Counted from the first letter of the stretch, positions 2 through 18,163 are shown. The stretch: 64,000 bases of DNA from Arcobacteraceae bacterium (GCA_048268245.1 JBLWVX010000008.1:1-64000), one strand, 5' to 3'. Made by a program: numbers and translations. Notes: generated by a model from the letters alone, not told the origin.

Positions 2-1543
2 ATAAACCTTACTAGTAATATAAAAGCTAAGCATCATAAAAATGAACAAATACTTTTCTATAAAATACAAACCCAATCTAGTAAGCTTCTATCTTACTTA
101 TTATATGAATATTCAAAAAATAAACAGAACATACTAAATGTACATAAGAAAGTTCAAAACTATATAGAACAAAAAAATTCTCTTGTAAATCTTGATGATA
201 TTTATCAAGAGATAAATAAAGGTTTAGTTCATGAACCTTATAATATTTATATTACTGATGAAAATTTAAAAATTGTTAATACTACCTTCAAACCTGATTT
301 AGGGTTTGATTTGAGTTTTGCAAAAAAAGAATTTGATAAACATAAAAAAGAGAATGTTGTAGGTATCTCTGCTCCAGTATTTGAAACTTATTCAAAGAAC
401 TTTTTTAGTTTTACAGATGCTTATTTAAAAAATAGTTCAAGACTAATGCAAGTAAGTTATAAATATGACCAAACAAATACACTTCAAAAAGATATTAAAG
501 ATATCATAAATCAAAATGAAATTATAGCTGATAGTAATGCTTACATTGTATTTGAAGATGGATACGTTAGTGCCTTTATGTTTAAAGAGTTTGAATCAAA
601 AAAAATAAACAAAGAAGCTATTAAAAATACTATTTCAAAGGCAAAACAATTATCTTCTAAACTTAAAAATCTTGATTTACATATAGAAAAAGTTAATATT
701 GAGAATACAGAGTATAAAAACTATTATTTTAGACATGAAAATCCTATTTTTAAAGATGCAAAAATAGTTTATAGTGTTAAATTTAAACAAGAAAGTTTAA
801 ATAAAGAGATTAAAAACATAAATATATTAACTATCTTTTTAGTAACCATTTTTTTACTTTCTATTTATTTTTTATTAAAGATGAGAGATAAAGAATTATC
901 TTTAACTCAAAAGGACACTTTTATAAAATATTCAGTTCATGAAATAAAAACACCATTAAGTATAATTTCTTTAAACAATCAATTAAGAGAAAAAACTTTA
1001 GGTGAAGATAAATACACAAAAAAAATAAATAGTGCAATAAAAACCCTAAAGAACTCATATGAAGATATGTCATTTTTTATTTCGCAAGATTATATAGATT
1101 ACGACAGAGAAATAATTAATCTAAAAGAACTTCTAAAAAATAGAGTAGAATATTTTAATACAATTGCAATTGAACAAGGAAGAAAAATAACACTTAAAAT
1201 AAAAAATGATTTACTTTTAGATATTTCAAAGACCGAGATATCAAGACTTATAGATAACAATTTATCGAATGCAATAAAATATTCAAAAGTAAAATCAATT
1301 ATAAAAGTTGAACTTATAGAGAATAGTTTAAGATTTTCTACTCAAGGAAAAGGAATTCAAGATACAAAAGCAATTTTTGAAAAATATAGAAGATATGACA
1401 ACTCAATAGGTGGGCATGGTTTAGGATTAAGCATAGTAAAAGATGTAGCTTTAAAAAACAGTATATCTATAGATGTCTCATCAAAAAATGGTGAGAATAT
1501 ATTTGAATATACATTTAATTGCCACAGCGATGACATTTCATAA
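2..1543 (+). CDS. Sensor histidine kinase (5' end outside window)
   Basis: Frame of ORF 311..1543 is open back to base 2. TM segment, H-box HEIKTPL, N-box NNLSNAIKYS, G2 GHGLGL. Confidence 0.9.
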   Translation: MNLTSNIKAKHHKNEQILFYKIQTQSSKLLSYLLYEYSKNKQNILNVHKKVQNYIEQKNSLVNLDDIYQEINKGLVHEPYNIYITDENLKIVNTTFKPDLGFDLSFAKKEFDKHKKENVVGISAPVFETYSKNFFSFTDAYLKNSSRLMQVSYKYDQTNTLQKDIKDIINQNEIIADSNAYIVFEDGYVSAFMFKEFESKKINKEAIKNTISKAKQLSSKLKNLDLHIEKVNIENTEYKNYYFRHENPIFKDAKIVYSVKFKQESLNKEIKNINILTIFLVTIFLLSIYFLLKMRDKELSLTQKDTFIKYSVHEIKTPLSIISLNNQLREKTLGEDKYTKKINSAIKTLKNSYEDMSFFISQDYIDYDREIINLKELLKNRVEYFNTIAIEQGRKITLKIKNDLLLDISKTEISRLIDNNLSNAIKYSKVKSIIKVELIENSLRFSTQGKGIQDTKAIFEKYRRYDNSIGGHGLGLSIVKDVALKNSISIDVSSKNGENIFEYTFNCHSDDIS

Positions 1544-1552
1544 TTATATAAT
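1520..1552 (+). promoter_or_regulatory. Tandem-repeat regulator box plus -10 (variant half-sites)
   Basis: TGCCAC-AGCGA-TGACAT-N10-TATAAT just upstream of the response regulator at 1559. Confidence 0.5.
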
Positions 1553-1558
1553 TTAAAA

Positions 1559-2212
1559 ATGAAGATATTATTATTAGAAGATGATTATAGTTTAAATGAA
1601 GCTATAAAAGAAACTCTTGAAAGTCAAGATTATATAGTAGAAAGTTTTTATGATGGTCTTGAAGCTTACTCAAATATATCAAATAACTATGACTTATTTA
1701 TTTTAGATATAAACACACCATCTATTGAAGGTTTAGATATTTTATCTCACATAAAGTCAATCAATATAAACTCAAATGTAATCATGATTAGTGCTATTAT
1801 AGATATTTTAAAGATAAAAGAAGCCTATGATTTAGGATGTGATGACTATATAAAAAAACCTTTTGAAATAGAAGAACTTTTGTTTAAAGTTCAAAGATTA
1901 GAAAAATCAAGTCTAAACAAAAGTATTTTTAAAATTAACTCCTCAATGTACTTTTGTAGAAATAAAAAAGAGCTAATTATAGAAAATCAAAAATGTAAGC
2001 TAACAAAAAATGAAAAAAACTTCTTATACCTACTAATCTCAAATAAAAGTAATATTATAAATCATGAACAAATAGAAAACTTTGTTTATCAAGGGGAGTC
2101 AAAAAGCTCAGATGCTGTAAGAAGTATGGTTAAAAGACTAAGAAAGAAAATACCTTATGACTTAATAGAAAATGTTTTAGAAGAAGGGTATCAGTTAAAA
2201 GTTAAACTATAA
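1559..2212 (+). CDS. OmpR/PhoB-family response regulator
   Basis: MKILLLEDD receiver, D-phospho site, KPF, C-terminal winged helix (RLRKKI...GY). Confidence 0.93.
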   Translation: MKILLLEDDYSLNEAIKETLESQDYIVESFYDGLEAYSNISNNYDLFILDINTPSIEGLDILSHIKSININSNVIMISAIIDILKIKEAYDLGCDDYIKKPFEIEELLFKVQRLEKSSLNKSIFKINSSMYFCRNKKELIIENQKCKLTKNEKNFLYLLISNKSNIINHEQIENFVYQGESKSSDAVRSMVKRLRKKIPYDLIENVLEEGYQLKVKL

Positions 2213-2888
2213 CTTTTAATTGATATAACTCTTTTAAAGGTTCTTCTAAAACCTCTATAGCTTCATTTAAATCTATATCATTTTGTTTACAAAGTTTTTT
2301 AAGAGTTTTTTTGATTGATTCTTTCTTATTTAGATTTTTTAAAAGAGCATATAAAAACTCATTTACCTCTCTAAATAGTACCTCATCACTTGAAAAGTCG
2401 TAGTATATTACTGTAAAGTTTTCTCTTTTTTCTTCATAATTTGTATTTATAATATCATATTTAAATCTTTTGATTCTAGAGCTTTTACTTAAAGAGTATG
2501 AACTATCCCATGAAAACTCTTTTTGCTTTTTTACTTTATACTCTTTCATTAGAAGTTCTAACTCTATCCAGTCAAAATATAAAAGTTCATATAAATATTT
2601 TCTATCATGAAATAGTCTGTTTTTTTTCACCATTTTTCTATAATCATTTGCTATTTGCCAAACAAAAGGAGTTGAAGGTGGATTTTTCATAAATAAGTAC
2701 AGAGTCTCTTCTAACTCTTTTGCTGATATATATTTTAAAAAAAGAGGAAAGGTATTATTGATAATCTCTTCATATCTATAAAATACTAACTTTTGATAAA
2801 TACCAAAAGCATTTGAGCTTGGATTTTCTTTTTGATTAGAAATAATATCAAAAAATCTATCTTCTACATCTCTTTCTAATTTAGCCAT
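2202..2888 (-). CDS. DUF2063-family MNIO partner protein (HvfC/BufC-like)
   Basis: IYQKLVFYR...FP...YELLYFDWIELEL pattern; overlaps the DUF692 stop codon. Confidence 0.8.
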   Translation of the reverse strand: MAKLERDVEDRFFDIISNQKENPSSNAFGIYQKLVFYRYEEIINNTFPLFLKYISAKELEETLYLFMKNPPSTPFVWQIANDYRKMVKKNRLFHDRKYLYELLYFDWIELELLMKEYKVKKQKEFSWDSSYSLSKSSRIKRFKYDIINTNYEEKRENFTVIYYDFSSDEVLFREVNEFLYALLKNLNKKESIKKTLKKLCKQNDIDLNEAIEVLEEPLKELYQLKVIV

Positions 2889-3702
2889 TTCTAACTTCTT
2901 TACAAATCTTTCTCATTTGTTTATACTCACTTATTAACTCTTCTAAAGGAGGTATATTATTATCTCTCTCTATCATAACAGGAGCATCTACTTGCTTTAA
3001 AGTATAATCCAAAAGCTTCCATACACCCTTGTCTATTGGCATTCCATGAGAGTCTATCTTCATATTTGCTTCTTCATCAAAATAATGCCCTGCCATGTGC
3101 ATGTAAGCTACTTTACTTTTATCTATTTGATCTATAAATCTTCTTGCTTTAAAACCATGATTTACAGAGTTTACAAATACATTGTTTACATCAAGAAGCA
3201 TTTTAGCACCTGATTTCTCCATAACTTCGTTTATAAAATCAACTTCTGCCATTTCACTGTAAGGTACTAAATAATAAGTAGCATTTTCAAGTATCAAATT
3301 TCTTTGAATAATATCCTCAACCTCTTTTACCCTATCACTTATAACTTCAATCATTTTTTTAGTCATAGGAACAGGTAATAATTCATAGGATTGTTTATTA
3401 TCTAATGATGAAAAACTTAGATGTTCAGAATAGTATTCAATATTGTATCTATCTAAAAAAGTTTTGATCTGTTTGACAAACTTTTTATTTAGTTTGTCAA
3501 CAGACCCAATTGATAGAGATAAACCATGAGCTATAGTTGGTCTTTCAAAAACTGCTTGCTCAAAAGATTTTTCAAAAAGTTTTGGCATATGCATCCAGTT
3601 TTCAGGAGTTACTTCCCAAAAATCTGGTCTAAACTTTGTATCTTTTAAATCAAGCAGAAAATCGCTTCTAAGTCCTAAGCCACAGCCTTTTAAATTTATC
3701 AT
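2881..3702 (-). CDS. DUF692 multinuclear non-heme iron oxidase (MNIO, HvfB/BufB-like)
   Basis: GLGLR, EVTPENW, HGLSLSIGS, YSEHLSF, LILEN, LLDVNNVFVNSVNHG, HMAGH, IDSHG, IERD motifs. Confidence 0.95.
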   Translation of the reverse strand: MINLKGCGLGLRSDFLLDLKDTKFRPDFWEVTPENWMHMPKLFEKSFEQAVFERPTIAHGLSLSIGSVDKLNKKFVKQIKTFLDRYNIEYYSEHLSFSSLDNKQSYELLPVPMTKKMIEVISDRVKEVEDIIQRNLILENATYYLVPYSEMAEVDFINEVMEKSGAKMLLDVNNVFVNSVNHGFKARRFIDQIDKSKVAYMHMAGHYFDEEANMKIDSHGMPIDKGVWKLLDYTLKQVDAPVMIERDNNIPPLEELISEYKQMRKICKEVRNG

Positions 3703-3720
3703 CTAATCATCTTCTCCGTT

Positions 3721-4071
3721 TCATCCACATTTACCAGCGCCACAAGCACCAGTTGCTTTTTTCTCAGTTTTTTTCATGTCGCCACCACATTTTCCAGCTC
3801 CACAAGCACCTTTTTTCATATCTTTCTTCATGTCACTTTTCATGTCACCACCACATTTTCCAGCTCCACAAGCACCTTTTTTCATATCTTTCTTCATGTC
3901 GCTTTTCATGTCACCACCACATTTTCCAGCTCCACAAGCACCTTTCTTTTCCATTTTCTTAGTTTCACCACCACATTTTCCAGCTCCACAAGATCCACTT
4001 CCTGCAAACGCAGCAGATGTTGAAAGTGCTGCTCCTAGCATAATTCCTGCTAATTTCATTTTTTTACTCAT
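3721..4071 (-). CDS. Exported Cys-repeat RiPP precursor (HvfA/oxazolin-like KCG family)
   Basis: Sec-type signal ending AAFA; five G[S/A]CGAGKCG units (10 Cys) with Met/Lys/Asp linkers; directly upstream of DUF692. Confidence 0.88.
   Translation of the reverse strand: MSKKMKLAGIMLGAALSTSAAFAGSGSCGAGKCGGETKKMEKKGACGAGKCGGDMKSDMKKDMKKGACGAGKCGGDMKSDMKKDMKKGACGAGKCGGDMKKTEKKATGACGAGKCG
3724..3999 (-). repeat. Intragenic tandem repeat (66-bp/22-aa core unit)
   Basis: ccacattttccagctccacaag-type unit recurs five times (one copy slightly diverged); GACGAGKCGGDMKSDMKKDMKK occurs twice exactly. Confidence 0.95.
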
Positions 4072-4100
4072 TTCTTATCCTTTTATTTAAATTTAATTTT

Positions 4101-4679
4101 TTATTTTTCTACTGCTTGTACTTCTACTTGAATTTTTACATTCTCACCAACAGCTACACCACCAAGCTCTAAAGCTTTATTCCATTTTAGGTCATAATCA
4201 AATCTATTAATTTTACCCTCAAGAGTGAAACCAACTCTTGTATTTCCTTCAAAGTCTTTGATTGTTGCTAAATCATCAACTTCTAAAGTAACTGGTTTAG
4301 TAATACCTCTAATAGTTAAGTCTCCTTTCATTTCCCCTTCATCACCATCAGCTTTATATGATTTCATCACAAAAGTCATTTTAGGAAATTTTTCTGATAA
4401 GAAGAAGTCTTCACTTTTTAAGTGATTATCTCTTTTTACTATTCCTGTATCAACAGATGCTGTATCAACTGTTGCTTTAAAAGTATTAAAAGTTTTAGTT
4501 TTACTATCAAAATCTATTACTGCATCGTATTTCTTAAAATCACCCTTAACATTAGTAATCATTAAGTGTTTTACAGAAAAACCTACACTTGTATGAGAGC
4601 CATCTAAGTTATATGGTGTTGCAAATGCCACACCTGCTGTTAATACAGCTGTACCTAAAAGCTTACTAAAAAATCCCAT
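4101..4679 (-). CDS. yceI: YceI-family periplasmic lipid/polyisoprenoid-binding protein
   Basis: Signal peptide; HTSVGFSVKHL, RDNHLKSEDFF, GDLTIRGITKPV motifs. Confidence 0.92.
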   Translation of the reverse strand: MGFFSKLLGTAVLTAGVAFATPYNLDGSHTSVGFSVKHLMITNVKGDFKKYDAVIDFDSKTKTFNTFKATVDTASVDTGIVKRDNHLKSEDFFLSEKFPKMTFVMKSYKADGDEGEMKGDLTIRGITKPVTLEVDDLATIKDFEGNTRVGFTLEGKINRFDYDLKWNKALELGGVAVGENVKIQVEVQAVEK

Positions 4680-4720
4680 TTTGTCTCCTTTTATTAACCC
4701 TTATTTGTTTTGATAAAAGA

Positions 4721-4753
4721 ATTTTATATTTTTTTTGTGTAGTTAATGTTAAG
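4721..4753 (-). promoter_or_regulatory. Copper-island box plus -10 for the yceI-RiPP operon
   Basis: Minus strand CTTAAC-ATTAA-CTACAC-N10-TAAAAT; first half-site degenerate. Confidence 0.62.
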
Positions 4754-4783
4754 TAGTCACTAAACTTATAACTTTAGTGACTA
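4754..4783 (-). terminator. Hairpin at end of cusA
   Basis: tagtcactaaa / tttagtgacta 11-bp inverted repeat overlapping the cusA stop; no clear U tract. Confidence 0.5.
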
Positions 4784-7700
4784 ACTGTAATATCTTTTAA
4801 CTTATCACCTTTATAAATTGCATATATATAAAAAATCGCAGGAATAATGATAAGAGTTAATAAAGCTGAACTAACCATCCCACCTATCATTGGTGCTGCA
4901 ATTCTTTGCATAACTTCACTTCCTACTCCATCTATATACATAATAGGAATTAAACCACCTAAGATTGCAAATAATGTCATAAGTTTAGGTCTTAGCCTTA
5001 ATACTGCACCTTTATAAATACCATGGAATATATGCTCTTTTGTAAACTCAATTTGCTTTTTAACTAACTCATTCATAGCTTCATGTAAATAAACAAGCAT
5101 TACAATAGAAGTTTCAGCAGCAACCCCTAAAAGAGCTAGGAAACCAACTATTACAGCAATAGAGATATTAAAGTTTAGATAATCTAAATAGAATATCCCA
5201 CCTGTTAGTGCAAATGGCAATGTAAAAAATATTATTATGGTATAAGTAATATTTCTTAATGCAAAATATATCAAAATAAAAATAATCACAAACGTTAAAG
5301 GAATAATATAAGTAAGTCTTTTCATTGCTGACTCAAGATATTCACTTTGTCCTGCCCACTCAAGATAATACCCCTCAGGAAGCTTTATATCTTTTAATAT
5401 ACTAATAGCTTCATCTTTATACTGTTTTGATGAAATACCATTTTTTGGCGTGATATAAATAAAGTTTACATTTAAAGCCTTCTCTGATTTAATCACAGAT
5501 GGCCCTTCTTCATAATATAAATCTGCAAACATTTCTAAAGGTTGAAAACCTAGTTTTGTTTTAACTTGAAGATTTTTTAAAGCTGTAATATCTTCTCTTT
5601 GAGCTGTTTCATATCTTAGACTTATTGGATATCGCTCTAAACCATCAATAAAAGTTGAGATTTTACTTCCTGCAACTCCTAAACTTATAGTTGATAAAAT
5701 ATCATTTTTACTAATTCCATATCTTGATAAAAGCTCTTCTTTTACATTGATATTTAAATAATATCCAGAATTAATTTTATCAGTTGATACAGATAAAGTT
5801 TTATCAAAAGCTTTTAATTTTTGTTCTATTAATCCTGCTGTTTCTTCTAACTGCTCATGACCACTACCATAAAGTTTAATTCCAAGAGGTGTTCTAATAC
5901 CTGTTAAAAGCATATCAATTCTTCCTCTAATAGGGTATGTCCAAGAGTTAATAAGGCCTGCTATTCTTAGTTTTTCATCCATTTCTTGCATAAGTTTTTT
6001 ATATGTCATACCCTCACGCCATTGATCTTGAGGCTTAAAAGTAATAATAGTTTCAATCATTGCAAGTGGTGCTGGGTCTGTTGCACTATCAGCTCGACCT
6101 GCTTTTCCAAATACTGTATCAACTTCAGGAAAAGATTTGATAATTTTATCTGTTTTATTTGTAAGTTCCCTTGATAAATCAACTCCTATTCCATAAGGAG
6201 TTACAGGCATATACATAAAAGTTTGTTCATTCATCATTGGCATAAATTCCCAGTTTTGTTTTTTGTACACTGGGTATGCAGCTATTAGTGTTCCTATAAA
6301 ACCTAAAACTATTAAATATCTCATTCTAAGAGATGTTTTTAAGATAGGAGAATATAAAAGTGTAAAGAATCTATTTAAGATATTTTTATTCTCACTTAGT
6401 ATTTTTCCTTTTATTAAGAACACCATTAAAATAGGCACTAAAGTAATAGATAAAATAGCCCCTGCTATCATGGCAAAAGTTTTTGTAAATGCTAGTGGAG
6501 TAAATAATCTTCCCTCTTGTCCTGTTAAAGCAAATATTGGTAGGAAAGATACCACAACTAAAATAAGTGCGAAAAAGATTGGACGCCCTACTTGTTTTGC
6601 AGATTTTATTATAATCTCTACTCTCTCTTTATTAGAAATATTCTCTTTTCCTTGTAAATACTTGTGAGCATTTTCTACCATAACTATTGTTGCATCTACC
6701 ATTGCTCCAATAGCAATAGCAATACCACCTAAACTCATAATATTTGAACCCATTCCAAATAGTTTCATTAGTAAAAAAGTAATTAAAACAGTAATAGGTA
6801 AAGTAATGATAATAATCAATGCACTTCTAAAGTGGAATAAAAACAAGGCACTAACAATGATAACTATAATAGACTCTTCAATAAGAGTGTTTTTTAAAGT
6901 ATCAATAGCCTTATCAATAAGTGAAGACCTATCATAAGTTTCGACTACTTCAACACCCTCAACCTTTAAAGTTTCTAACTTTTTCTTTACGGCTTTTATT
7001 ACAGCATAAGGATTCTCTCCATATCTTACTACTACTATTCCACCAACTGTATCACCCTGTCCATTTAAATCAGCCATACCTCTTCTATTTGTAGAAGTTA
7101 TGTTTACATCAGCTATATCTTTTATTTTTAAAGGTGTACTATTTAAAGTTTTGATTGTAATATTTTCAATATCAACAACACTTTGTAAATAACCTTTGGC
7201 TTGAATCATATGCTCAAAACCATTTTCTAAAACTATTCTTCCACCTTTTTCATCATTATTTGAAGTAAGAGCTTTTTTTATTTCATCTACACTTAAATCA
7301 TATTGCACTAGTTTATCTTGGTTTAAAGTAATCTCATAGTTTTTTATAAAACCGCCAATTGAAGCTATTTCACTAACCCCATCAACACCTAAAAGTGCAT
7401 ATTTATAATAGTAATCTTGTAGAGTTCTTAACTCATCAAGAGATTTAGTATCTGATTTTAAAGCATACTCATAAGCCCAACCAACACCTGTAGCATCTGG
7501 ACCAATAGCTACATTTACACCAGTAGGGAATGTTCCTTGAAGTTGAGACAACTGCTCCAAAATTCTGTTTCTTGAATCATATAAATCAGTACCATCTTTA
7601 AAAATGATATAAATCAAAGCATTTTGAAAAGAACTCATTGCTCTTACTGTTTCAATATTTGGTAAACTCATAAGATTTGAAATCAAAGGATATGACACTT

Positions 7701-7890
7701 GTTCTTCAATAGTCTTAGGACTTTGTCCTGGCCATTTAACTTGTACAATTACCTGAGGTGGCGATAAATCAGGGATTGCATCAAGAGATGTATTTTTTAC
7801 TGCCCAAAAAGAAGCAAAACTTAAAACTATTACAGAAAACAATATTAAAAATTTATTTTTTATACTATATGAAATTATATTTTCAACCAT
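4774..7890 (-). CDS. cusA: CusA/CzcA heavy-metal efflux RND permease (Cu/Ag type)
   Basis: LDAIPDLS, GPDATGVGW, GIAIAIGAMVDA, DPAPLAMIET, RLRPKLMT motifs; 1038 aa. Confidence 0.95.
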   Translation of the reverse strand: MVENIISYSIKNKFLILFSVIVLSFASFWAVKNTSLDAIPDLSPPQVIVQVKWPGQSPKTIEEQVSYPLISNLMSLPNIETVRAMSSFQNALIYIIFKDGTDLYDSRNRILEQLSQLQGTFPTGVNVAIGPDATGVGWAYEYALKSDTKSLDELRTLQDYYYKYALLGVDGVSEIASIGGFIKNYEITLNQDKLVQYDLSVDEIKKALTSNNDEKGGRIVLENGFEHMIQAKGYLQSVVDIENITIKTLNSTPLKIKDIADVNITSTNRRGMADLNGQGDTVGGIVVVRYGENPYAVIKAVKKKLETLKVEGVEVVETYDRSSLIDKAIDTLKNTLIEESIIVIIVSALFLFHFRSALIIIITLPITVLITFLLMKLFGMGSNIMSLGGIAIAIGAMVDATIVMVENAHKYLQGKENISNKERVEIIIKSAKQVGRPIFFALILVVVSFLPIFALTGQEGRLFTPLAFTKTFAMIAGAILSITLVPILMVFLIKGKILSENKNILNRFFTLLYSPILKTSLRMRYLIVLGFIGTLIAAYPVYKKQNWEFMPMMNEQTFMYMPVTPYGIGVDLSRELTNKTDKIIKSFPEVDTVFGKAGRADSATDPAPLAMIETIITFKPQDQWREGMTYKKLMQEMDEKLRIAGLINSWTYPIRGRIDMLLTGIRTPLGIKLYGSGHEQLEETAGLIEQKLKAFDKTLSVSTDKINSGYYLNINVKEELLSRYGISKNDILSTISLGVAGSKISTFIDGLERYPISLRYETAQREDITALKNLQVKTKLGFQPLEMFADLYYEEGPSVIKSEKALNVNFIYITPKNGISSKQYKDEAISILKDIKLPEGYYLEWAGQSEYLESAMKRLTYIIPLTFVIIFILIYFALRNITYTIIIFFTLPFALTGGIFYLDYLNFNISIAVIVGFLALLGVAAETSIVMLVYLHEAMNELVKKQIEFTKEHIFHGIYKGAVLRLRPKLMTLFAILGGLIPIMYIDGVGSEVMQRIAAPMIGGMVSSALLTLIIIPAIFYIYAIYKGDKLKDITVSH

Positions 7891-7899
7891 GATATATTC

Positions 7900-8919
7900 C
7901 TACCATTCATCATCTGAATCAGAGTCATAAAGTGCATTTGTAATTGCATCTGAATCTAATAAGAATAATGCATTGTTTATTACCTCATCCCCTTCTTCTA
8001 AGCCATCAAGTATTTCGTACTTATAAGAAGACAGTCTTTTTGCTTCAACCTTTACAGGTTCAAACTCTTTTTTTGAAATAGGTTTAAATACATAATATTC
8101 ACTTCCTTTTGATAGAACTGCTGTTTTAGGAAGTGTGAGCATTGTTTTTTGTGTTGATTTTAATTTTACTGTTCCAAACATATTTGGATAAAGTTTTAAA
8201 TCCTTGTTATCAACTATAAATCTTACATCAATACTTTTATCTTTTTCATCAACATTTGGATAAATATAGTCAAGTTTTGTTTTAATAGGAGTAGCTAATC
8301 CATCTACATAAACTGAAGCTTCCATCTTATCTTTTAAAAACCCTAAATCTTTTTGATAAATATTTGCTATAAACCATAGTTTTTCTATATTTGCAAGTTG
8401 TAATAAAAGGTTACCTTTTTTGATGGCACCTTTATCATTTATATTTTTTTGTAAAACTATTGCATTTATAGGTGAGTACACTTTTACACCATTATATGAA
8501 AGTTTATTTCTTTTAATTTTCTCTAACTCTTTTTTATTTATATCTAAAGCTTTTAACTTTTCAAGAGTACTTAAGTAAAGGGGTTTATTAACTTTTTTTG
8601 CGATTTGCAACTCTTTTTGAATTGAGTAAATCTCATCTGAATAAACTTGAAAAAGCTCTTCGTTTTTATTTACTATCATAAAAGTTTTGTTTGCATTTAA
8701 ATTTGTAATATATCCATCAAATCTAGTAACCACATCATCTACTTTTGATTCATCAATTGCCATCTTTCCATAAAAGCTTTTTGTTATTGAAACCTCTTCT
8801 TGTTTTACTTTTACTGTTTTACGATTGAAAAGCTGTTCTACTTCTATAATTTTTGCATTTAAACTTGTAAAAATAAACAGTGATAAAAAAATCGCACTTT
8901 TAATATAATATTTTTGCAT
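7900..8919 (-). CDS. RND periplasmic adaptor (CusB/CzcB-like)
   Basis: Signal peptide, DYIYP, LYPNMF, GLEEGDEV, ALFLLDS; upstream of cusA. Confidence 0.9.
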   Translation of the reverse strand: MQKYYIKSAIFLSLFIFTSLNAKIIEVEQLFNRKTVKVKQEEVSITKSFYGKMAIDESKVDDVVTRFDGYITNLNANKTFMIVNKNEELFQVYSDEIYSIQKELQIAKKVNKPLYLSTLEKLKALDINKKELEKIKRNKLSYNGVKVYSPINAIVLQKNINDKGAIKKGNLLLQLANIEKLWFIANIYQKDLGFLKDKMEASVYVDGLATPIKTKLDYIYPNVDEKDKSIDVRFIVDNKDLKLYPNMFGTVKLKSTQKTMLTLPKTAVLSKGSEYYVFKPISKKEFEPVKVEAKRLSSYKYEILDGLEEGDEVINNALFLLDSDAITNALYDSDSDDEW

Positions 8920-8922
8920 TTA

Positions 8923-10119
8923 TTAGTCCTCTAAAGTATAGTATTTTGTTTTAGCATAGTTTGAAAAGTACTCAAACTTTTCATCAAGGGCTTTTATCTC
9001 AAATGAAATTAATTCATTTAAATTTTTAATTAAAGCTTCTGGCTTAACTTTTGAAAAACTATTATTGTTTTCAAGGTTTTTCTGTATCTTCTTTTTAAGT
9101 GGTAAAATTTGCTTTTTTATAAGTTTATAGTTTAAAAAAGCACTATTCGCACTATTAACATATGTTTTAAGTTCTGTTTGTAAAACTCTTTTTGTATCAT
9201 CAAGTTTTGAAGTGACTTTATTTGATTCAAACTTTGCTTTTAAAGAGTTCAATTTTTGAGTATTATTTATAGTTAAAGGTATATTGACAGAGATATTCGC
9301 ATAATCTTCAAACTTACTATCTCTATTAAAATAAGTCACATTTACTTTAATATCAGGTATTTGTTTTGCTTTTTCAAGCTTTGAAAGATAGATATATTTT
9401 TTTGATTTTATATACTCTTGTTTTAAAATTGGATGTTCATCACTATTCATATTTAAAACTAGCTTTTTTAACTTGTTTATATCATTTTGTGAAATTTCAT
9501 CTATTTTCATATAAGAAATTTGCTCTAGCTTTAAATATAAATTATCAATTAGATTCTTTAGTTTTTGTTTTTGAATTTCTACTTTAAAAAAAAGTACCTT
9601 CGCATCTATTACTTCATTTTGTGTAGTTTTTCCAAACTCATAAAGAGATTTAGATAAAAACTCTAATGTTTTGATATTTTTTTTATACTCATCAAGTAGT
9701 TTTAGTTTGTTTTCTAAAACTAGTATTGAGTAAGCTAACTCATAAATCTTTGCTTTTAGCTTTAACTTTTGATTTTCTAGTACTAGAGTTTTGATTTGCA
9801 TATCTTTTAAAGCTATTTTTTCTTTTATTTCCAATTTCCCATTTGTAGGAATAACTTGAGAAAGCCCAATAAAACTAGCCTGCATTGCTTCTTTATCTCT
9901 TTTAAAAGGCTCATCAAAATGAATATCATTAAATCCAAGACTAAGTACTGGATCACTCCATTTTGAAGCAAGTTTTATATTTTCATTCGCAACTTTAATA
10001 GAGTGATTTAAACTTCTTAAATCACTACTATTTTGTAAACTATTTGAAACAATTTCATCTATTGATACTGCAAAACTCAAAGATGTACATAGAGTTAATG
10101 TTAAAGCTAACTTTTTCAT
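8923..10119 (-). CDS. TolC-family outer membrane efflux protein (CrdB-like)
   Basis: Signal peptide, helical OEP repeats, position in the RND operon. Confidence 0.82.
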   Translation of the reverse strand: MKKLALTLTLCTSLSFAVSIDEIVSNSLQNSSDLRSLNHSIKVANENIKLASKWSDPVLSLGFNDIHFDEPFKRDKEAMQASFIGLSQVIPTNGKLEIKEKIALKDMQIKTLVLENQKLKLKAKIYELAYSILVLENKLKLLDEYKKNIKTLEFLSKSLYEFGKTTQNEVIDAKVLFFKVEIQKQKLKNLIDNLYLKLEQISYMKIDEISQNDINKLKKLVLNMNSDEHPILKQEYIKSKKYIYLSKLEKAKQIPDIKVNVTYFNRDSKFEDYANISVNIPLTINNTQKLNSLKAKFESNKVTSKLDDTKRVLQTELKTYVNSANSAFLNYKLIKKQILPLKKKIQKNLENNNSFSKVKPEALIKNLNELISFEIKALDEKFEYFSNYAKTKYYTLED

Positions 10120-10502
10120 TATATATTCACACTTCCTCTTAAAGTATAAACTTTTCCTTCTTTTGTTTTAAACTTAAGTTGATATTGCCATGTTCCACTC
10201 ATAGGAAAATTAATCATCATTTTATATTTTCCATTTATAAATTTTGCTTTATCCTTATATTCCATATATGGCATACCTGGCATTTCTGGCATAAAAAACT
10301 TTGATTTTACTTTTGCGTTTGTTACTGTTTGTCCATCTTTTAAAAGTTCTACAAAAAGATTATTGTCTCCTGCAACTAAAGATTTTTCAGATGTCATCTT
10401 TATAGTATAACCACCTTTTTCTCCTGTTTGAGAAACTGGTTCTGCACTTAAGATACCAACTGTAAATAACATTGCTACAATTACTTTGAAAATTGACTTC
10501 AT
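10119..10502 (-). CDS. crdA: CrdA-like (YtkA/FixH-fold) periplasmic copper-binding protein
   Basis: Signal peptide, MPEMPGMPYM motif, MSGTW; first gene of a crdA-crdB-czcB-czcA-type operon as in Helicobacter pylori. Confidence 0.78.
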   Translation of the reverse strand: MKSIFKVIVAMLFTVGILSAEPVSQTGEKGGYTIKMTSEKSLVAGDNNLFVELLKDGQTVTNAKVKSKFFMPEMPGMPYMEYKDKAKFINGKYKMMINFPMSGTWQYQLKFKTKEGKVYTLRGSVNI

Positions 10503-10529
10503 TTAAGACTCCTAATTTTTATTTTAGGA

Positions 10530-10562
10530 ATCTTAACTTTTTTATATGGAGTTTGTGTGTAG
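10530..10562 (-). promoter_or_regulatory. Copper-island box plus -10 for the crdA efflux operon
   Basis: Minus strand CTACAC-ACAAA-CTCCAT-N10-TAAGAT. Confidence 0.75.
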
Positions 10563-11711
10563 TTAAAACTTTAATTCAAAAGTAGTTGATTTTTGGTACT
10601 GCGAGCTTACATCTATTTTAATATTATAGTGTTTACAAATATCGCTTACTATATTTAAGCCTAATCCAAAACCACCTTGTTCATTTGTAGCTCTATAATA
10701 TCTGTTGAAAATATCATTTACTTTTTCTTTTTTTATTCCTATACCTGTATCTTTAATAGTTAAAATATTTTCATCTAAAGTAATATAAATTTTTCCTTTT
10801 ACTTTATTATATTTTATGGCATTTGAAATAAGATTATTTACAACTCTAATAAAGTCATCTTTATCAATTTCAAAATAAAAATCTTTTATATCTTTTTTTA
10901 TTTCAATTTTTTTCTTGCTTGATAATGGAATAAAATACTCCAATTGTTCTTCTATTAACTCTTTTAGATTATATTTTTTTATATCTCTATTTTTATCTTT
11001 ATTTTGTAAAAAAATATATGTTAAATCTTTATATATTTCAGATACTCTTTGGGCACTAAGTCTTATTCTTTCAATCTTTTTTTCATTTAAAGTTTTATCT
11101 TCAGTAGACATCATAATAGCACTAATAGGAGTATTTAATTCATGTGTAGTATCTTTTATAAAGTTATTTAACTTAACTCTTTCTTCTTTTATTGGTTTTA
11201 AAAAAAGCTTGCCAAGATAAAAGCCAACAAGACATATAAACAAATAAATAAAAGAAAAAAATACTAAAATATTTAGTTTTAAACTATCTATTTTTTCATG
11301 ATAAGAATTATCTTCAATAGCTAAAAAATAAACCCCTAAATGCCCAAAGGTTGAATCATCAACTAAAATTAAACTTTTTTTTGTTTCAATGACTTTTTTT
11401 TCTAAATTTAATTTTGTATTGAGATTACCAAAAATCTTTTTTTTGTTTTTATCATAAAAAGCTATTTTATAAGTTTTATTTTTTAAAAGATTAGAAGTAT
11501 CAAACTTACTATTTGACATGTGAGCTAAAGTAACTTTAGAAGATAATTTTGATAAGTTGTTTTGCATTCTCGATTTTGTTAAATCTAAATAAAGTCTTTG
11601 TTCATTCTGAAAATAAAAAAAAGCCAAAAATAAAATCAAAATCAAAGAAGAACCTAGAAATAGACCAACAAATCTATAATAAGTACTCTTTTCACTAGCT
11701 GTTAAATCTAT
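10563..11711 (-). CDS. crdS: Sensor histidine kinase, CrdS-like (start uncertain: TTG 11645 or ATA 11711)
   Basis: Two TMs, DTTHELNTPI H-box, NNLISNAIKYN, GFGLGL; frame is open to an ATA with GGAG upstream. Confidence 0.78.
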   Translation of the reverse strand: MDLTASEKSTYYRFVGLFLGSSLILILFLAFFYFQNEQRLYLDLTKSRMQNNLSKLSSKVTLAHMSNSKFDTSNLLKNKTYKIAFYDKNKKKIFGNLNTKLNLEKKVIETKKSLILVDDSTFGHLGVYFLAIEDNSYHEKIDSLKLNILVFFSFIYLFICLVGFYLGKLFLKPIKEERVKLNNFIKDTTHELNTPISAIMMSTEDKTLNEKKIERIRLSAQRVSEIYKDLTYIFLQNKDKNRDIKKYNLKELIEEQLEYFIPLSSKKKIEIKKDIKDFYFEIDKDDFIRVVNNLISNAIKYNKVKGKIYITLDENILTIKDTGIGIKKEKVNDIFNRYYRATNEQGGFGLGLNIVSDICKHYNIKIDVSSQYQKSTTFELKF

Positions 11712-12354
11712 AGCCTACTCCTCTAATATTTGAGATTAAATCCTCATTTAAAATTTTACGTAAATTTTTTATATATGTTCTTATTGTTGCAGGACTTGGA
11801 TTATCTTCATAAGCCCATACATTCATACTTAATTCATCTACACTTACAGCAACATTTTTTCTTTTCATTAAGTATAATAACACATCACACTCTTTTTGTC
11901 TAATGTGAATTTTTTCATTATCTTTTATTATTTCTAAATTATTTACATCTAATTTTATATTTTCACTAATTTCTAAAAGTTCATTAGGAGAAATATTATG
12001 AAGTCTACAAACATTTTTAATTCTTAAATCTAACTCTCTTAACTCAAAAGGTTTTTTAATATAATCATCACAACCCGTTTTAAAACCTTCTTCTACATCC
12101 TCTAATAAATTTGCAGATGTGATAAAAATTGTTGCAGTATTTATACTTTCATCTCTTAGGTGCTTTAATAATTCAAAACCATTTAAAGAAGGTACATTGA
12201 TATCAAATAATAATATATCATAGTTTTTAGAATAAATAAGTTCTAAAGCTTCATTTCCATCATAAGCACAGTCTACATCATGCCCTTTCTCTTCTAAATG
12301 TTCTTCTATTATCTCATTTAGTAATAAATCATCTTCTAATAATAATATTTTCAT
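11695..12354 (-). CDS. crdR: OmpR-family response regulator, CrdR-like
   Basis: Receiver plus winged helix with IRTYIKNLRK; coupled to the kinase upstream of crdA. Confidence 0.78.
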   Translation of the reverse strand: MKILLLEDDLLLNEIIEEHLEEKGHDVDCAYDGNEALELIYSKNYDILLFDINVPSLNGFELLKHLRDESINTATIFITSANLLEDVEEGFKTGCDDYIKKPFELRELDLRIKNVCRLHNISPNELLEISENIKLDVNNLEIIKDNEKIHIRQKECDVLLYLMKRKNVAVSVDELSMNVWAYEDNPSPATIRTYIKNLRKILNEDLISNIRGVGYRFNS

Positions 12355-14411: not shown

Positions 14412-14444
14412 CTACACGTTAACTACATTTAAAAAATATATACT
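14412..14444 (+). promoter_or_regulatory. Copper-island box plus -10 for the candidate sRNA
   Basis: CTACAC-GTTAA-CTACAT-N10-TATACT. Confidence 0.75.
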
Positions 14445-14607: not shown

Positions 14608-14823
14608 ATGTTTTCATATATGGATATGAATATGACTATATTTCATGGTCTTACTATGTTTATATTTTGGTTTATTGTTTTTTTTATATTATTTTCATTA
14701 TTTAATAAAAAAGAAGACAAGAATAATTCTATAAATGAGATTTTAAAAAAGCGTTTTGCAAAAGGTGAAATTACAAAAAAGCAATATGAAGAAATTAAAG
14801 AAATACTAATTCAAGAGAGCTAA
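14608..14823 (+). CDS. SHOCT-domain small membrane protein
   Basis: AGGAG SD; Met/His N-terminus, one TM, EILKKRFAKGEITKKQYEE. Confidence 0.85.
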   Translation: MFSYMDMNMTIFHGLTMFIFWFIVFFILFSLFNKKEDKNNSINEILKKRFAKGEITKKQYEEIKEILIQES

Positions 14824-15499: not shown

Positions 15500-17677
15500 T
15501 TATATTTTTTTAAGTTTTAGTCTTAGAGAGTTTAATACTACTGTAACAGAACTAAAACTCATAGCAATTCCTGCGTACATAGGACTTAACATTAATCCCC
15601 ATACTGGATATAAAACACCTGCAGCAAGTGGGATTCCAACAGCATTATAAATAAATGCCCAAAATAAATTTTGTTTAACTATTTTCATAGTTTCAACAGA
15701 TAAATTTAAACTTTTTATTATGGAATTTAATTCATTGTTGATTAAAATAATATCTCCCGCATCTTTACTTATATCAGAACCAGAGTTTAAAGTAATACCT
15801 ATATTAGCTTTTTTTATTGCTGGAGCATCATTTATACCATCACCAGCAAACATTACTATTGCATTTTTTTGTAGTTTCTCTATAATCTCATATTTTTCAG
15901 TAGGTATAACTTCACTATAAACTTTTTCAATTCCTAAATTATTTGCAATACTTAATGCAGTAGTTTTATTATCACCTGTTAATAATACAGGAGTAATTCC
16001 TCTATTTTTTAAACTTACAATTAATTGTTTTGCACCTACTTTTAGTTCATCAGCTAAAGAAAAAGACCCTATAGAAAGTTTATTTATTGCAGCTAAAATA
16101 ACTCCATTACCTTTTTCTAATTCTTCTAAATAAAACTCTTTATGTTTTTTATGTATTTCAACATTATTTTGCTCTAAAAGTTTTATATTTCCTATAAAGA
16201 TTTCATCATTTTTATAAAAAGCTTTCACTCCTTTTCCAGGTAAAACCTCTATATTTTCAATTTTTATATCTAAAGGTATTTTTTGATTATCTAAATACTT
16301 TACAACTGCTTTTGAAATAGGATGTTCACTATATTTTTCAAGGGAACCTAATAGTTTAAAATATTTTCCTTCTATATCTGTATTAACAACTGAAATTTCT
16401 CCTTTTGTTAATGTTCCTGTTTTATCAAAAACTGCATATTTTATTTCTTTAATTTGTTCTAATACTTCTGGGTTTTTGATTAAAATACCTTCTTTTGCTC
16501 CTCTACTAACAGAACTAACTATTGCTATTGGTGTTGCCAGTCCTAAAGCACAAGGACAAGATATGATTAAAACACTAATACTTGCAAGTATTGCATTTTG
16601 CACATTTCCTAATATTGCCCATATAATAAAAGTCAAAATAGAAGTTATAATTACTAAAGGAACAAAAACATTAGCAATTTTATCAGCAAATCTACTTATT
16701 GGTATTTGTTTACTTTGTGCATTTTTTAAAAGATCAATAATTTTAGATAAGGTTGTATCATTTGATTCTTTTAATACTTTTACTTTTAAAACACCATTTG
16801 TATTTAAAGTACCACTTAATAGTTCATCATTTTTTTCTTTATAAACAGGTAAAGATTCTCCTGTTATCATTGAAGCATCAATATTTGCTGAGCCTTCTAA
16901 TATCAAACCATCACAAGGAATTTTTTCTCCTGTTTTTACTAAAACTATATCATTAACTTTTAATTCTTTTATTAAAACTTGTTTTATGTCCTTTTCATTT
17001 AATACCAAATTTGCATATTGAGGTGCTAACTTCATCAAATTTTTCAAGAATGTACTAGCTTTTTGTTTGGAGTTTTCTTCTAAATATTTACCCAATAAAA
17101 CAAAACTAATAATGACAGCCGCACCATCAAAATATAAAAATCTTAAATTCTCAGGAAATAAAGAGGGAAAAAATACGACAAATGTCGAATAAAAATAAGC
17201 AGCACTTGTACCTAAAGCTACCAATACATTCATATCATAGTTATTATTTTTCACAGACTTATAAGAGAGTTTATAAAATCTAGCTCCTGTATAAAACTGA
17301 ACTATTGTAGCTATTAAAAATATTAAATAATTATTTGTAGGTTCATTAAATAAACTTGAAAAAGCAATGATAAATATAAGGATAGTTAAAGATATAGATA
17401 TAAAAAAGAGTTTTCTTAATTTTTTAAAAGCTATTAACTGTTCTTTTTCTAAGGCTTGAAGATTTTCCTCTACTTTATATCCAAGATCTTGTATTGAATT
17501 AATTAGTTTATTTTCATCAAATTTATTTTCATCAATCTCGAAGTAACCTTGGGAAGAAGCAAAACTTACCTTAGAAGAAATGACACCTTCTTGTTTATTT
17601 AAAAATTTTTCTATTCCATTAGAACAATTTACACATGTCATTCCTAAAATATTCAAATTTACTTTTTTTTTAGACAT
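15500..17677 (-). CDS. copA: Copper-translocating P1B-1 ATPase
   Basis: GMTCVNC HMA, TGES, CPCALGLATP, DKTGT, SEHP, GDGIND, YN and MSFSS Cu(I) motifs. Confidence 0.96.
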   Translation of the reverse strand: MSKKKVNLNILGMTCVNCSNGIEKFLNKQEGVISSKVSFASSQGYFEIDENKFDENKLINSIQDLGYKVEENLQALEKEQLIAFKKLRKLFFISISLTILIFIIAFSSLFNEPTNNYLIFLIATIVQFYTGARFYKLSYKSVKNNNYDMNVLVALGTSAAYFYSTFVVFFPSLFPENLRFLYFDGAAVIISFVLLGKYLEENSKQKASTFLKNLMKLAPQYANLVLNEKDIKQVLIKELKVNDIVLVKTGEKIPCDGLILEGSANIDASMITGESLPVYKEKNDELLSGTLNTNGVLKVKVLKESNDTTLSKIIDLLKNAQSKQIPISRFADKIANVFVPLVIITSILTFIIWAILGNVQNAILASISVLIISCPCALGLATPIAIVSSVSRGAKEGILIKNPEVLEQIKEIKYAVFDKTGTLTKGEISVVNTDIEGKYFKLLGSLEKYSEHPISKAVVKYLDNQKIPLDIKIENIEVLPGKGVKAFYKNDEIFIGNIKLLEQNNVEIHKKHKEFYLEELEKGNGVILAAINKLSIGSFSLADELKVGAKQLIVSLKNRGITPVLLTGDNKTTALSIANNLGIEKVYSEVIPTEKYEIIEKLQKNAIVMFAGDGINDAPAIKKANIGITLNSGSDISKDAGDIILINNELNSIIKSLNLSVETMKIVKQNLFWAFIYNAVGIPLAAGVLYPVWGLMLSPMYAGIAMSFSSVTVVLNSLRLKLKKI

Positions 17678-17705: not shown

Positions 17706-17909
17706 TTATTCTATAATTTCAAAATCTAATTCTTTCATTTCTTTTTTAAAAACCTCTTCTTGATTTTTATTTTCGATGTTCACAGAAACCTCTCTAGGTT
17801 CAACTTCTAAATTAACTTCTATTTCTCCAAAATTATTTTTTAAAGTACTTTTAATTAAATTAGCACAATTATTACATGAAATATTTCTTGCTTTATATAT
17901 TTTTTTCAT
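17706..17909 (-). CDS. HMA-domain copper chaperone (CopZ-like)
   Basis: ISCNNC motif, 67 aa, upstream of copA. Confidence 0.85.
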   Translation of the reverse strand: MKKIYKARNISCNNCANLIKSTLKNNFGEIEVNLEVEPREVSVNIENKNQEEVFKKEMKELDFEIIE

Positions 17910-17959: not shown

Positions 17960-18163
17960 TTATCTATCTAAATTATCATCTGGATAGATTGTATCTAATA
18001 CACTTTGAGGAATTAAAGATTTTTCAACTTTCTTACTTTCACTTTTATGAAATTCTTTATGCATATTCATACATTTTTCTTTGCTCATATTATGACTATC
18101 ATTTGCATATAAACTTCCTGCTACTAAACCTAAAGCTAAAACTGATAATACTAACTTTTTCAT
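17960..18163 (-). CDS. Small secreted His/Met/Cys-containing protein
   Basis: AAGGA SD, signal peptide ending LYA, mature part SHNMSKEKCMNMHKEFH. Confidence 0.75.
   Translation of the reverse strand: MKKLVLSVLALGLVAGSLYANDSHNMSKEKCMNMHKEFHKSESKKVEKSLIPQSVLDTIYPDDNLDR

Follow-up and report, generated by a model that had tools for sequence, protein, structure and literature searches.

A probable oxazolin-type peptide module appended to a copper-efflux operon in Arcobacteraceae, whose relatives often keep the peptide and YceI without the maturase

To our knowledge, the copper peptides made by multinuclear non-heme iron-dependent oxidases (MNIOs), namely the bufferins and oxazolin, were first described in 2024, and how they fit into the physiology of the cell is still not clear. 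Here we analyse a locus of this kind in a 64,000-nucleotide (nt) stretch of an Arcobacteraceae bacterium genome (GCA_048268245.1 JBLWVX010000008.1:1-64000; hereafter the window), in which genes for a YceI-family protein, an exported Cys-repeat precursor, an MNIO (DUF692) and a DUF2063 protein adjoin a copper pump operon. In Haemophilus influenzae, HvfBC modifies the Cys residues of the AEGKCGEGKCG repeats of HvfA, with a loss of 4 Da each, and only the modified peptide competes with bicinchoninic acid (BCA) for Cu(I) (PMC11252979). The modification, originally assigned as oxazolone/thioamide, has been reassigned to 5-thiooxazole (bioRxiv 10.64898/2026.06.05.730506). The bufferins act in the periplasm and protect Caulobacter from copper (PMC11626156). 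DoxX is needed there for neither modification nor copper protection, and it is often absent from the clusters (PMC11626156).

We read the locus, with a probability of about 0.8, as an HvfABC/oxazolin-type (Buf_EGKCG) module for a ribosomally made, post-translationally modified peptide (RiPP), appended to a two-component-regulated ytkA-cusCBA-yceI copper/silver efflux operon. Gene order, protein domains, metal-ligand residues, a promoter box with a -10-like element and a family-wide architecture, all read from sequence, point to this assignment. The genes of the island are the following.

11695-12354, minus strand: response regulator of the OmpR family, heading the island (PF00072 and PF00486)
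10563-11645, minus strand: sensor histidine kinase, partner of the response regulator (HisKA and HATPase_c domains)
10119-10502, minus strand: YtkA-like protein, whose gene opens the cus operon (PF13115, 80.1 bits)
8923-10119, minus strand: cusC-like outer-membrane factor (PF02321)
7900-8919, minus strand: cusB-like membrane fusion protein (PF16576, 142.3 bits)
4774-7890, minus strand: cusA/czcA heavy-metal resistance-nodulation-division (RND) pump (TIGR00914, 1006.5 bits, cut-off 701)
4101-4679, minus strand: yceI, exported YceI-family lipocalin of the copper-island orthogroup (PF04264, 150.3 bits)
3721-4071, minus strand: HvfA-like precursor of 116 amino acids (aa) (NF050137, 29.6 bits, cut-off 19.5)
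2881-3702, minus strand: hvfB-like MNIO (DUF692) maturase (PF05114, 292.9 bits)
2202-2888, minus strand: hvfC-like partner with DUF2063 and RiPP recognition element (RRE) (PF22106, 31.4, cut-off 27)
15500-17677: CopA P-type ATPase, a member of the island

From the response regulator and histidine kinase through ytkA, cusCBA, yceI and the precursor to the MNIO and DUF2063 genes, a single same-direction series occupies the minus strand. The gaps read from the sequence are 94 nt between cusA and yceI, 29 nt between yceI and the precursor and 18 nt between the precursor and the MNIO gene, and hvfB and hvfC overlap by 8 nt. The reading frames of yceI, the precursor, hvfB and hvfC are all intact, and each is set with a ribosome-binding site. 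An earlier note on this DNA had placed yceI, precursor, DUF692 and DUF2063 genes in this order directly 3' of cusA; its coordinates, on the minus strand, are exact, and the Cus/Cop copper island that it described is borne out by domain matches for cusCBA, the two-component genes and CopA. All three pump components, CusA, CusB and CusC, are present (TIGR00914, PF16576, PF02321), while the genome, 99.3% complete, yielded zero matches to CusF (PF11604). As that note had also stated, DoxX and an ECF (extracytoplasmic function) sigma factor are missing: neither PF07681 nor Sigma70_r4_2 (PF08281) was matched genome-wide, PF04542 and NrsF being outside the search. The genome has one MNIO.

The best NCBIfam match of this MNIO is the HvfB model NF003818 (318.9, under the cut-off of 360), with the BufB model at 249.6, and the closest solved relative is 3BWW, a DUF692 protein (E = 3e-51). 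In a set of 126 HvfB homologues reaching from Arcobacteraceae out to Pseudomonadota, H59, H94, E139, D171, N174, H202, D217, H219 and E245 are invariant (126/126) and H206 is kept in 125. We take the invariant His, Asp, Glu and Asn positions to be the iron ligands, from work on MbnB. Across six genera of the cus-linked clade, HvfB identity is 77-99%. The partner protein, which passes the NGO1945_C model PF22106, falls just short of PF09836 (25.9 against 27.2) and scores 72.2 with the HvfC model NF050145, under its cut-off of 142.

The precursor carries five G[SA]CGAGKCG units, and hence ten Cys residues, separated by linkers of Met, Lys and Asp. Its N-terminus, MSKKMKLAGIMLGAALSTSAAFA followed by GSG, shows by eye the basic N-region, the hydrophobic core and the AxA site (AFA before G) of a Sec signal peptide, which stands in place of a leader. 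Among 25 precursors, L7, A8, G9, L12, G13, A15, L16, A21 and A23 of the signal peptide are invariant, as are the motif Cys, Gly and Lys residues. No Pfam family was matched; the sole hits are the HvfA-family models NF050137 (KCGExKCG_twice), a domain model that the precursor passes, and NF050188, the full-length HvfA equivalog, for which it scores 21.4 against a cut-off of 95. Profile searches recover the DUF692, PF22106 and HvfA-family (NF050137) domains, with PF09836 and the HvfA, HvfB and HvfC equivalogs below cut-off; the combination of MNIO, DUF2063 partner and exported Cys-repeat precursor of HvfA/oxazolin type, proposed in the earlier note, stands on domain matches. The precursor gene contains a 66-nt tandem repeat (3771-3945; 2.7 copies, 98% identity) that spans about two and a half units, and precursors of relatives have 3 to 5 Cys units. 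The near identity of the repeats suggests that the number of units changed recently, by expansion of the precursor.

The motif also occurs in other proteins. In one genome (G053), which has four motif-bearing loci and one MNIO, a PCu(A)C chaperone domain (PF04314, 130 bits) is followed by three C-terminal CGQGKCG units (L143:7982-8578, minus strand), a fusion that ties the motif to copper independently. At L146:8336-8731 (G054), a second, tandem Cys-rich exported peptide lies directly after the yceI-linked peptide; it matches no Pfam family and has a lipoprotein-like signal (FAGC) and CPxGxC-type units, then two CGAGKCG units.

Upstream of yceI lies a candidate promoter, listed here with the related elements.

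4736-4753, minus strand: direct-repeat box CTTAACA-TTAA-CTACACA with an 11-bp period, a putative response-regulator site
4721-4728, minus strand: TATAAAAT, a -10-like element 7 nt (7 A residues) past the box
10558-10566, minus strand: copy of TTAACTACA upstream of ytkA-cusCBA, an exact match
4752-4786, minus strand: hairpin at the cusA stop codon, with no U tract (-13.7 kcal/mol, z = -2.59)

OmpR/PhoB-type sites usually consist of a direct repeat of 11-bp period beside a -10 element. The 9-mer TTAACTACA occurs five times in the window, against 1.66 expected, and four of the copies (4738, 10558, 13678 and 14419) are in intergenic regions of the island. In 50 of 57 orthologous loci, CTACACA-N4-CTACACA is found with at most two mismatches 59-81 nt upstream of the yceI start codon, whereas mononucleotide shuffles give an expectation of 0.02 per 57. 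The box occurs both where yceI follows cusA and where it is divergent from the two-component genes, and its succession by a -10-like element is repeated in relatives. The earlier note had given the promoter the island's two-component-type box, and both the shared 9-mer and the conserved repeat agree with this. From these sequences we infer that a regulator of the island binds the box and that copper is the signal. Loci with more than two mismatches to the box include L060, L062 and L108-L110, plus L033 and L059 (3 mismatches). At L108-L110, three of five loci that kept cusA-yceI and lost the peptide, the box is absent upstream of yceI (4-6 mismatches). A consensus scan for terminators from cusA to hvfC called none, the 4752-4786 hairpin included, with hit numbers at chance, and nothing reached the gathering score in an Rfam scan of 1500-11000. 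The plus-strand TTAACTACA copy at 14419-14427 lies just past one response-regulator gene and ahead of a 71-aa open reading frame (ORF; 14608-14823, plus strand), which encodes a membrane protein with, by eye, a SHOCT-like C-terminus and stops 1 nt short of the next response-regulator gene.

The architecture is conserved in the family. HvfB is encoded in 67 of 184 Arcobacteraceae species genomes (the window's own counted) and in 13 of 22 genera, and about 17 kb was fetched around 60 MNIO hits (G101, G136, G141, G144, G173 and G176 were left out for contig edges or short contigs; G116, weaker second hit only). The order yceI-precursor-hvfB-hvfC is found in 37 of the 60 loci: 12 after cusA, 24 divergent from a response regulator/histidine kinase pair and 1 elsewhere. 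Nine further loci of the same clade have the cluster without yceI, eight directly after cusA and one divergent from the two-component pair, so that the MNIO belongs to a cus island, after cusA or beside the two-component genes, in 46 of 60 loci. Orthologues of the response regulator at 11695-12354 adjoin the cluster in relatives. Thirteen loci form a distant clade (51-60% identity) with no adjacent yceI; five of them have doxX, six are followed by response regulator and histidine kinase genes (with ytkA-cusCB where the contig reaches) and two lie after cusA. The remaining MNIO is unrelated. The ORF filter called no precursor in L082, L085, L089 and L090, though these genomes hold the motif.

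Outside the family, an HvfB homologue was found in 14 genomes from a sample of 401 of the phylum. Ten of these 14 Campylobacterales clusters have doxX, placed either directly past hvfC or ahead of the precursor, and a BLASTP search with the YceI of the window detected no orthologue nearby in any of the 14; among 49 Pseudomonadota loci, custom uncalibrated hidden Markov models found YceI in none and DoxX in 3. A general linkage of YceI to MNIO clusters was thereby ruled out, the Pseudomonadota count resting on the uncalibrated models. A quick maximum-likelihood tree of HvfB, with 10 Pseudomonadota rows as the root, unites all 45 cus/YceI-linked enzymes in a single clade (support 100). This clade is nested within Campylobacterales clusters of DoxX-type or bare form and itself encloses the yceI-less rows. 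This nesting indicates that the cus/YceI architecture arose once in Arcobacteraceae and that yceI was later lost in one lineage.

By homology with the described systems, HvfB and its RRE partner HvfC would use O2 and an iron cofactor in the cytoplasm to oxidise as many as ten Cys in the five CGAGKCG units. This would yield a copper-ligating heterocycle, for which 5-thiooxazole is the current assignment. The Sec signal peptide would direct export to the periplasm, where the peptide would bind Cu(I) alongside CusCBA. Judging from the box, the OmpR-type regulator of the island would drive yceI-hvfABC in response to copper, plus any read-through from cusA.

The peptide is, on the other hand, frequently found without the maturase. 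A degenerate DNA pattern for C-G-x-G-K-C-G was scanned across the 184 genomes, with HvfB counts merged by hand. It matched in 107 genomes, whereas the reversed control gave 3 matches in all. The motif is present in 65 of 67 HvfB-positive genomes and in 42 genomes without HvfB, of which 39 show two or more matches and 36 reach a completeness of 90% or above; about 40% of the motif-bearing genomes (42/107) are thus MNIO-less. A PF05114 search of 15 of these 42 genomes found no MNIO in 14; in the fifteenth there was a single 50-bit hit, distant and partial, on another contig. The five orphan peptides compared with NF050137 (L092, L097, L100, L102 and L141) all pass it, with 21-58 bits against 19.5. 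In a published survey of the Buf_EGKCG family, 67 of 2583 precursor-bearing genomes are MNIO-less (PMC12452194). In supplementary file 2 of that survey, many rows labelled Arcobacteraceae carry accessions seemingly from other bacteria, and the taxon column may be misaligned; the file serves here as no more than a hint that Buf_EGKCG genomes lacking an MNIO had been recorded.

YceI shows the same independence. BLASTP with the window's YceI gave orthologue-level hits, at 59-74% identity within the family, in many HvfB-negative genomes, and in all 20 MNIO-less loci fetched the orthologue, 59-73% identical to that of the window, lies after cusA or faces the two-component genes. Twelve of the 20 have cusCBA-yceI, an intact Cys-repeat peptide with a signal peptide and then the MatE gene that elsewhere trails hvfC, three have yceI-peptide divergent from the two-component pair, and five have yceI alone; the peptide is accordingly kept in 15. 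One of the 20 loci is from G053, which has its MNIO at another locus. At L141 and L142, the peptide follows cusA with neither yceI nor hvfBC. In the YceI tree, which is quick, with few branches strongly supported and its direction set by the paralogue root, rows without an MNIO are nested among rows that have one, and yceI-only rows in turn among the MNIO-less, which fits a stepwise loss of hvfBC and then of the peptide. Ten peptide-only species and 3 yceI-only species share one clade (13 rows, support 88), implying that the peptide-only state persisted through speciation.

In terms of these counts, the maturase looks dispensable for keeping the peptide. A possible, if tentative, extension is that the Cus regulon of Arcobacteraceae has the exported Cys/Met-repeat peptide as a regular member, usually with YceI, and that the peptide works modified or not. 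On that view the peptide would be a facultative RiPP, and the MNIO and HvfC an option that improves it by converting thiols prone to oxidation into thiooxazole ligands. If so, the 67 genomes with a maturase and the 42 with the peptide only offer a natural comparison of what modification adds.

Several observations weigh against the assignment of the locus as an oxazolin-type module under two-component control. Because 42 relatives keep the motif without an MNIO, modification is, by this genomic count, not needed for the peptide to persist. Since HvfB, HvfC and HvfA of the window all miss their NCBIfam equivalog cut-offs, the precursor with 21.4 against 95, they are by sequence divergent members of their families, and the exact chemistry could differ. 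In addition, the first Cys of each motif pair stands in an S/A-C-G context, not K-C-G. As for regulation, a sigma-70 consensus scan, whose hit numbers were at chance, did not call the -10/box promoter of yceI, and the island holds four response regulators, each a candidate for binding the box.

Rather than a storage buffer, the peptide might mainly be a chaperone for Cu(I)/Ag(I) in the periplasm, supplying CusCBA in place of CusF, the MNIO tuning its affinity or resistance to oxidation. This we regard as rather unlikely. The genome lacks CusF, the peptide gene follows cusA or cusA-yceI directly in many loci (L141 and L142 included), and the promoter region with the box is common to the peptide and the cus island. 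The linkers of the precursor are rich in Met, and Met-rich stretches are typical of known periplasmic Cu(I) sites. However, any contact with CusB or CusA is purely hypothetical, and 24 loci carry a peptide operon that diverges from the two-component genes and does not adjoin cusA. Furthermore, the unmodified HvfA of H. influenzae did not compete with BCA for Cu(I) (PMC11252979).

The role of YceI bears on the claim of the earlier note that it stands in place of DoxX. The protein has a signal peptide and a full-length domain (positions 1-150 of the 150-position PF04264 model), and the cus-linked YceIs form one clade, with support 100, apart from the two paralogues of the genome. These paralogues adjoin MarR/LigB-like/pirin genes and panC/miaB-type genes. 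For the cus-linked YceI, the usual pairing with cytochrome b561 was considered and rejected, as the Pfam hits of 8 ORFs near the paralogues include no b561-type protein. As an accessory dedicated to the RiPP, YceI might take over the function of DoxX, helping for instance to handle the mature peptide, maintain its redox state or deliver it. Its gene lies directly upstream of the precursor in two contexts among the MNIO loci, the position of doxX in the H. influenzae operon (PMC11252979). YceI and DoxX were never met in the same cluster, and in the other families YceI is in 0/14 and DoxX in 10/14 clusters. The part of the claim that stands is phylogenetic: the linked MNIOs are a derived clade within DoxX-type clusters.

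The functional part is not supported by the survey, and we consider such an accessory role improbable. The orthogroup occurs without an MNIO in 20 of 20 fetched loci, and in five of them without the peptide, while nine MNIO clusters of the same clade do without yceI. Since DoxX is dispensable and often absent in the known clusters, its absence here is not special, and there may have been no role to replace, given that Caulobacter does not need it (PMC11626156). The 15 MNIO-less loci in which the peptide follows yceI allow for a link between YceI and the peptide, if not the enzyme; a complex prediction of YceI with the peptide scored 0.00, with the partner's own fold uncertain, and tips the balance in neither direction.

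Because the orthologue stays with cusA or the two-component genes in MNIO-less relatives, YceI is best read from these neighbourhoods as a copper-island component, not a maturation factor. It is likely to carry a lipid or isoprenoid-quinone ligand in the periplasm under envelope or copper stress. A transposon table for A. butzleri lists yceI_1 flanked by cusA (PMC12811638). YceI appears neither in the main text of the Buf_EGKCG survey nor in two of its supplementary files (PMC12452194), and a YceI-copper-island link was not met in the MNIO literature searched. For EGKCG or thiooxazole with Campylobacterota or Arcobacter, there was no RiPP-term paper among the matches listed.

That the locus is a decaying remnant, with family-wide loss of hvfBC under way and no function left in the peptide and enzymes here, is very improbable: the nesting of MNIO-less and then peptide-less states within MNIO-bearing ones in the YceI tree fits progressive loss, but the four intact frames with ribosome-binding sites, the conservation of HvfB across six genera with invariant ligand residues and the 98%-identical repeat, a recent precursor expansion, stand against it.

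The island also holds an OprD-like porin and two further response regulators, and the minus-strand series is met at its end by a convergent second two-component pair (2-2212, plus strand). Upstream of copA, two 67-aa ORFs on the minus strand were noted by eye: one at 17706-17909 with a CNNC motif and a CopZ-type look, and one at 17960-18163 for an exported peptide containing His, Met and Cys.

For the oxazolin-type reading, the regulatory setting is what differs. The RiPP lies physically within an RND copper-efflux operon and is apparently under two-component, not ECF-sigma, control, and a "buffer beside the pump" is directly testable here. The main added value of the survey is the frequent retention of the peptide and YceI without the maturase. 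With 42 of 107 genomes against 67 of 2583 in the published survey, Arcobacteraceae are a hotspot of maturase-less precursors, which allows a test of the function of the unmodified peptide. There is also a pitfall for annotation, as NF050137 names its matches "modified RiPP metallophore", even peptides from MNIO-less genomes. YceI, in turn, shifts from "RiPP accessory" to "copper-island gene".

Compared with the hvf operon of H. influenzae (HvfX/DoxX-HvfA-HvfB-HvfC; oxazolin), the locus shares an exported precursor with paired xGKCG motifs and C-x4-C spacing, an MNIO with a DUF2063/RRE partner directly downstream of it and, by analogy, probably copper binding through Cys-derived heterocycles. 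It differs in its motif, which is G[SA]CGAGKCG with Met/Lys linkers against AEGKCGEGKCG, and in having yceI in the upstream position with no DoxX genome-wide. It also lies within a cusCBA operon that has a two-component box; for hvf, the texts consulted mention neither such an embedding nor such a regulator (PMC11252979, bioRxiv 10.64898/2026.06.05.730506). With the bufferins of Caulobacter vibrioides (BufA1/A2, BufB, BufC, BufD=DoxX), it would have in common a Sec-exported, MNIO-modified periplasmic copper RiPP, and DoxX is optional there as well, buf2 being without it (PMC11626156). However, the precursor here is neither DUF2282 (no Pfam match) nor, apparently, Buf_6/12Cys (no such model was applied), and SigF/NrsF control is apparently replaced by an OmpR-type two-component system. 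The Buf_EGKCG/oxazolin survey describes the same core of RiPP, MNIO and DUF2063, with DoxX variably present and precursors with signal peptides (PMC12452194). There the family is recorded mostly from Pseudomonadota (PMC12452194).

Like E. coli CusCFBA, the operon combines a tripartite RND Cu(I)/Ag(I) pump, apparent two-component control and a small exported, presumably metal-binding protein; unlike it, it has no CusF, a Cys-repeat RiPP precursor follows cusA and a YtkA-like gene leads. YceI resembles the YceI/BcnA lipocalins in its full-length domain and signal peptide, but the adjacent cytochrome b561 described for bcnA (PMC9113575) is lacking and the orthogroup is tied to cusA or copper two-component genes. 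The locus therefore represents a known RiPP type that varies in architecture and regulation; the earlier note was right on the RiPP system and its surroundings but over-read YceI.

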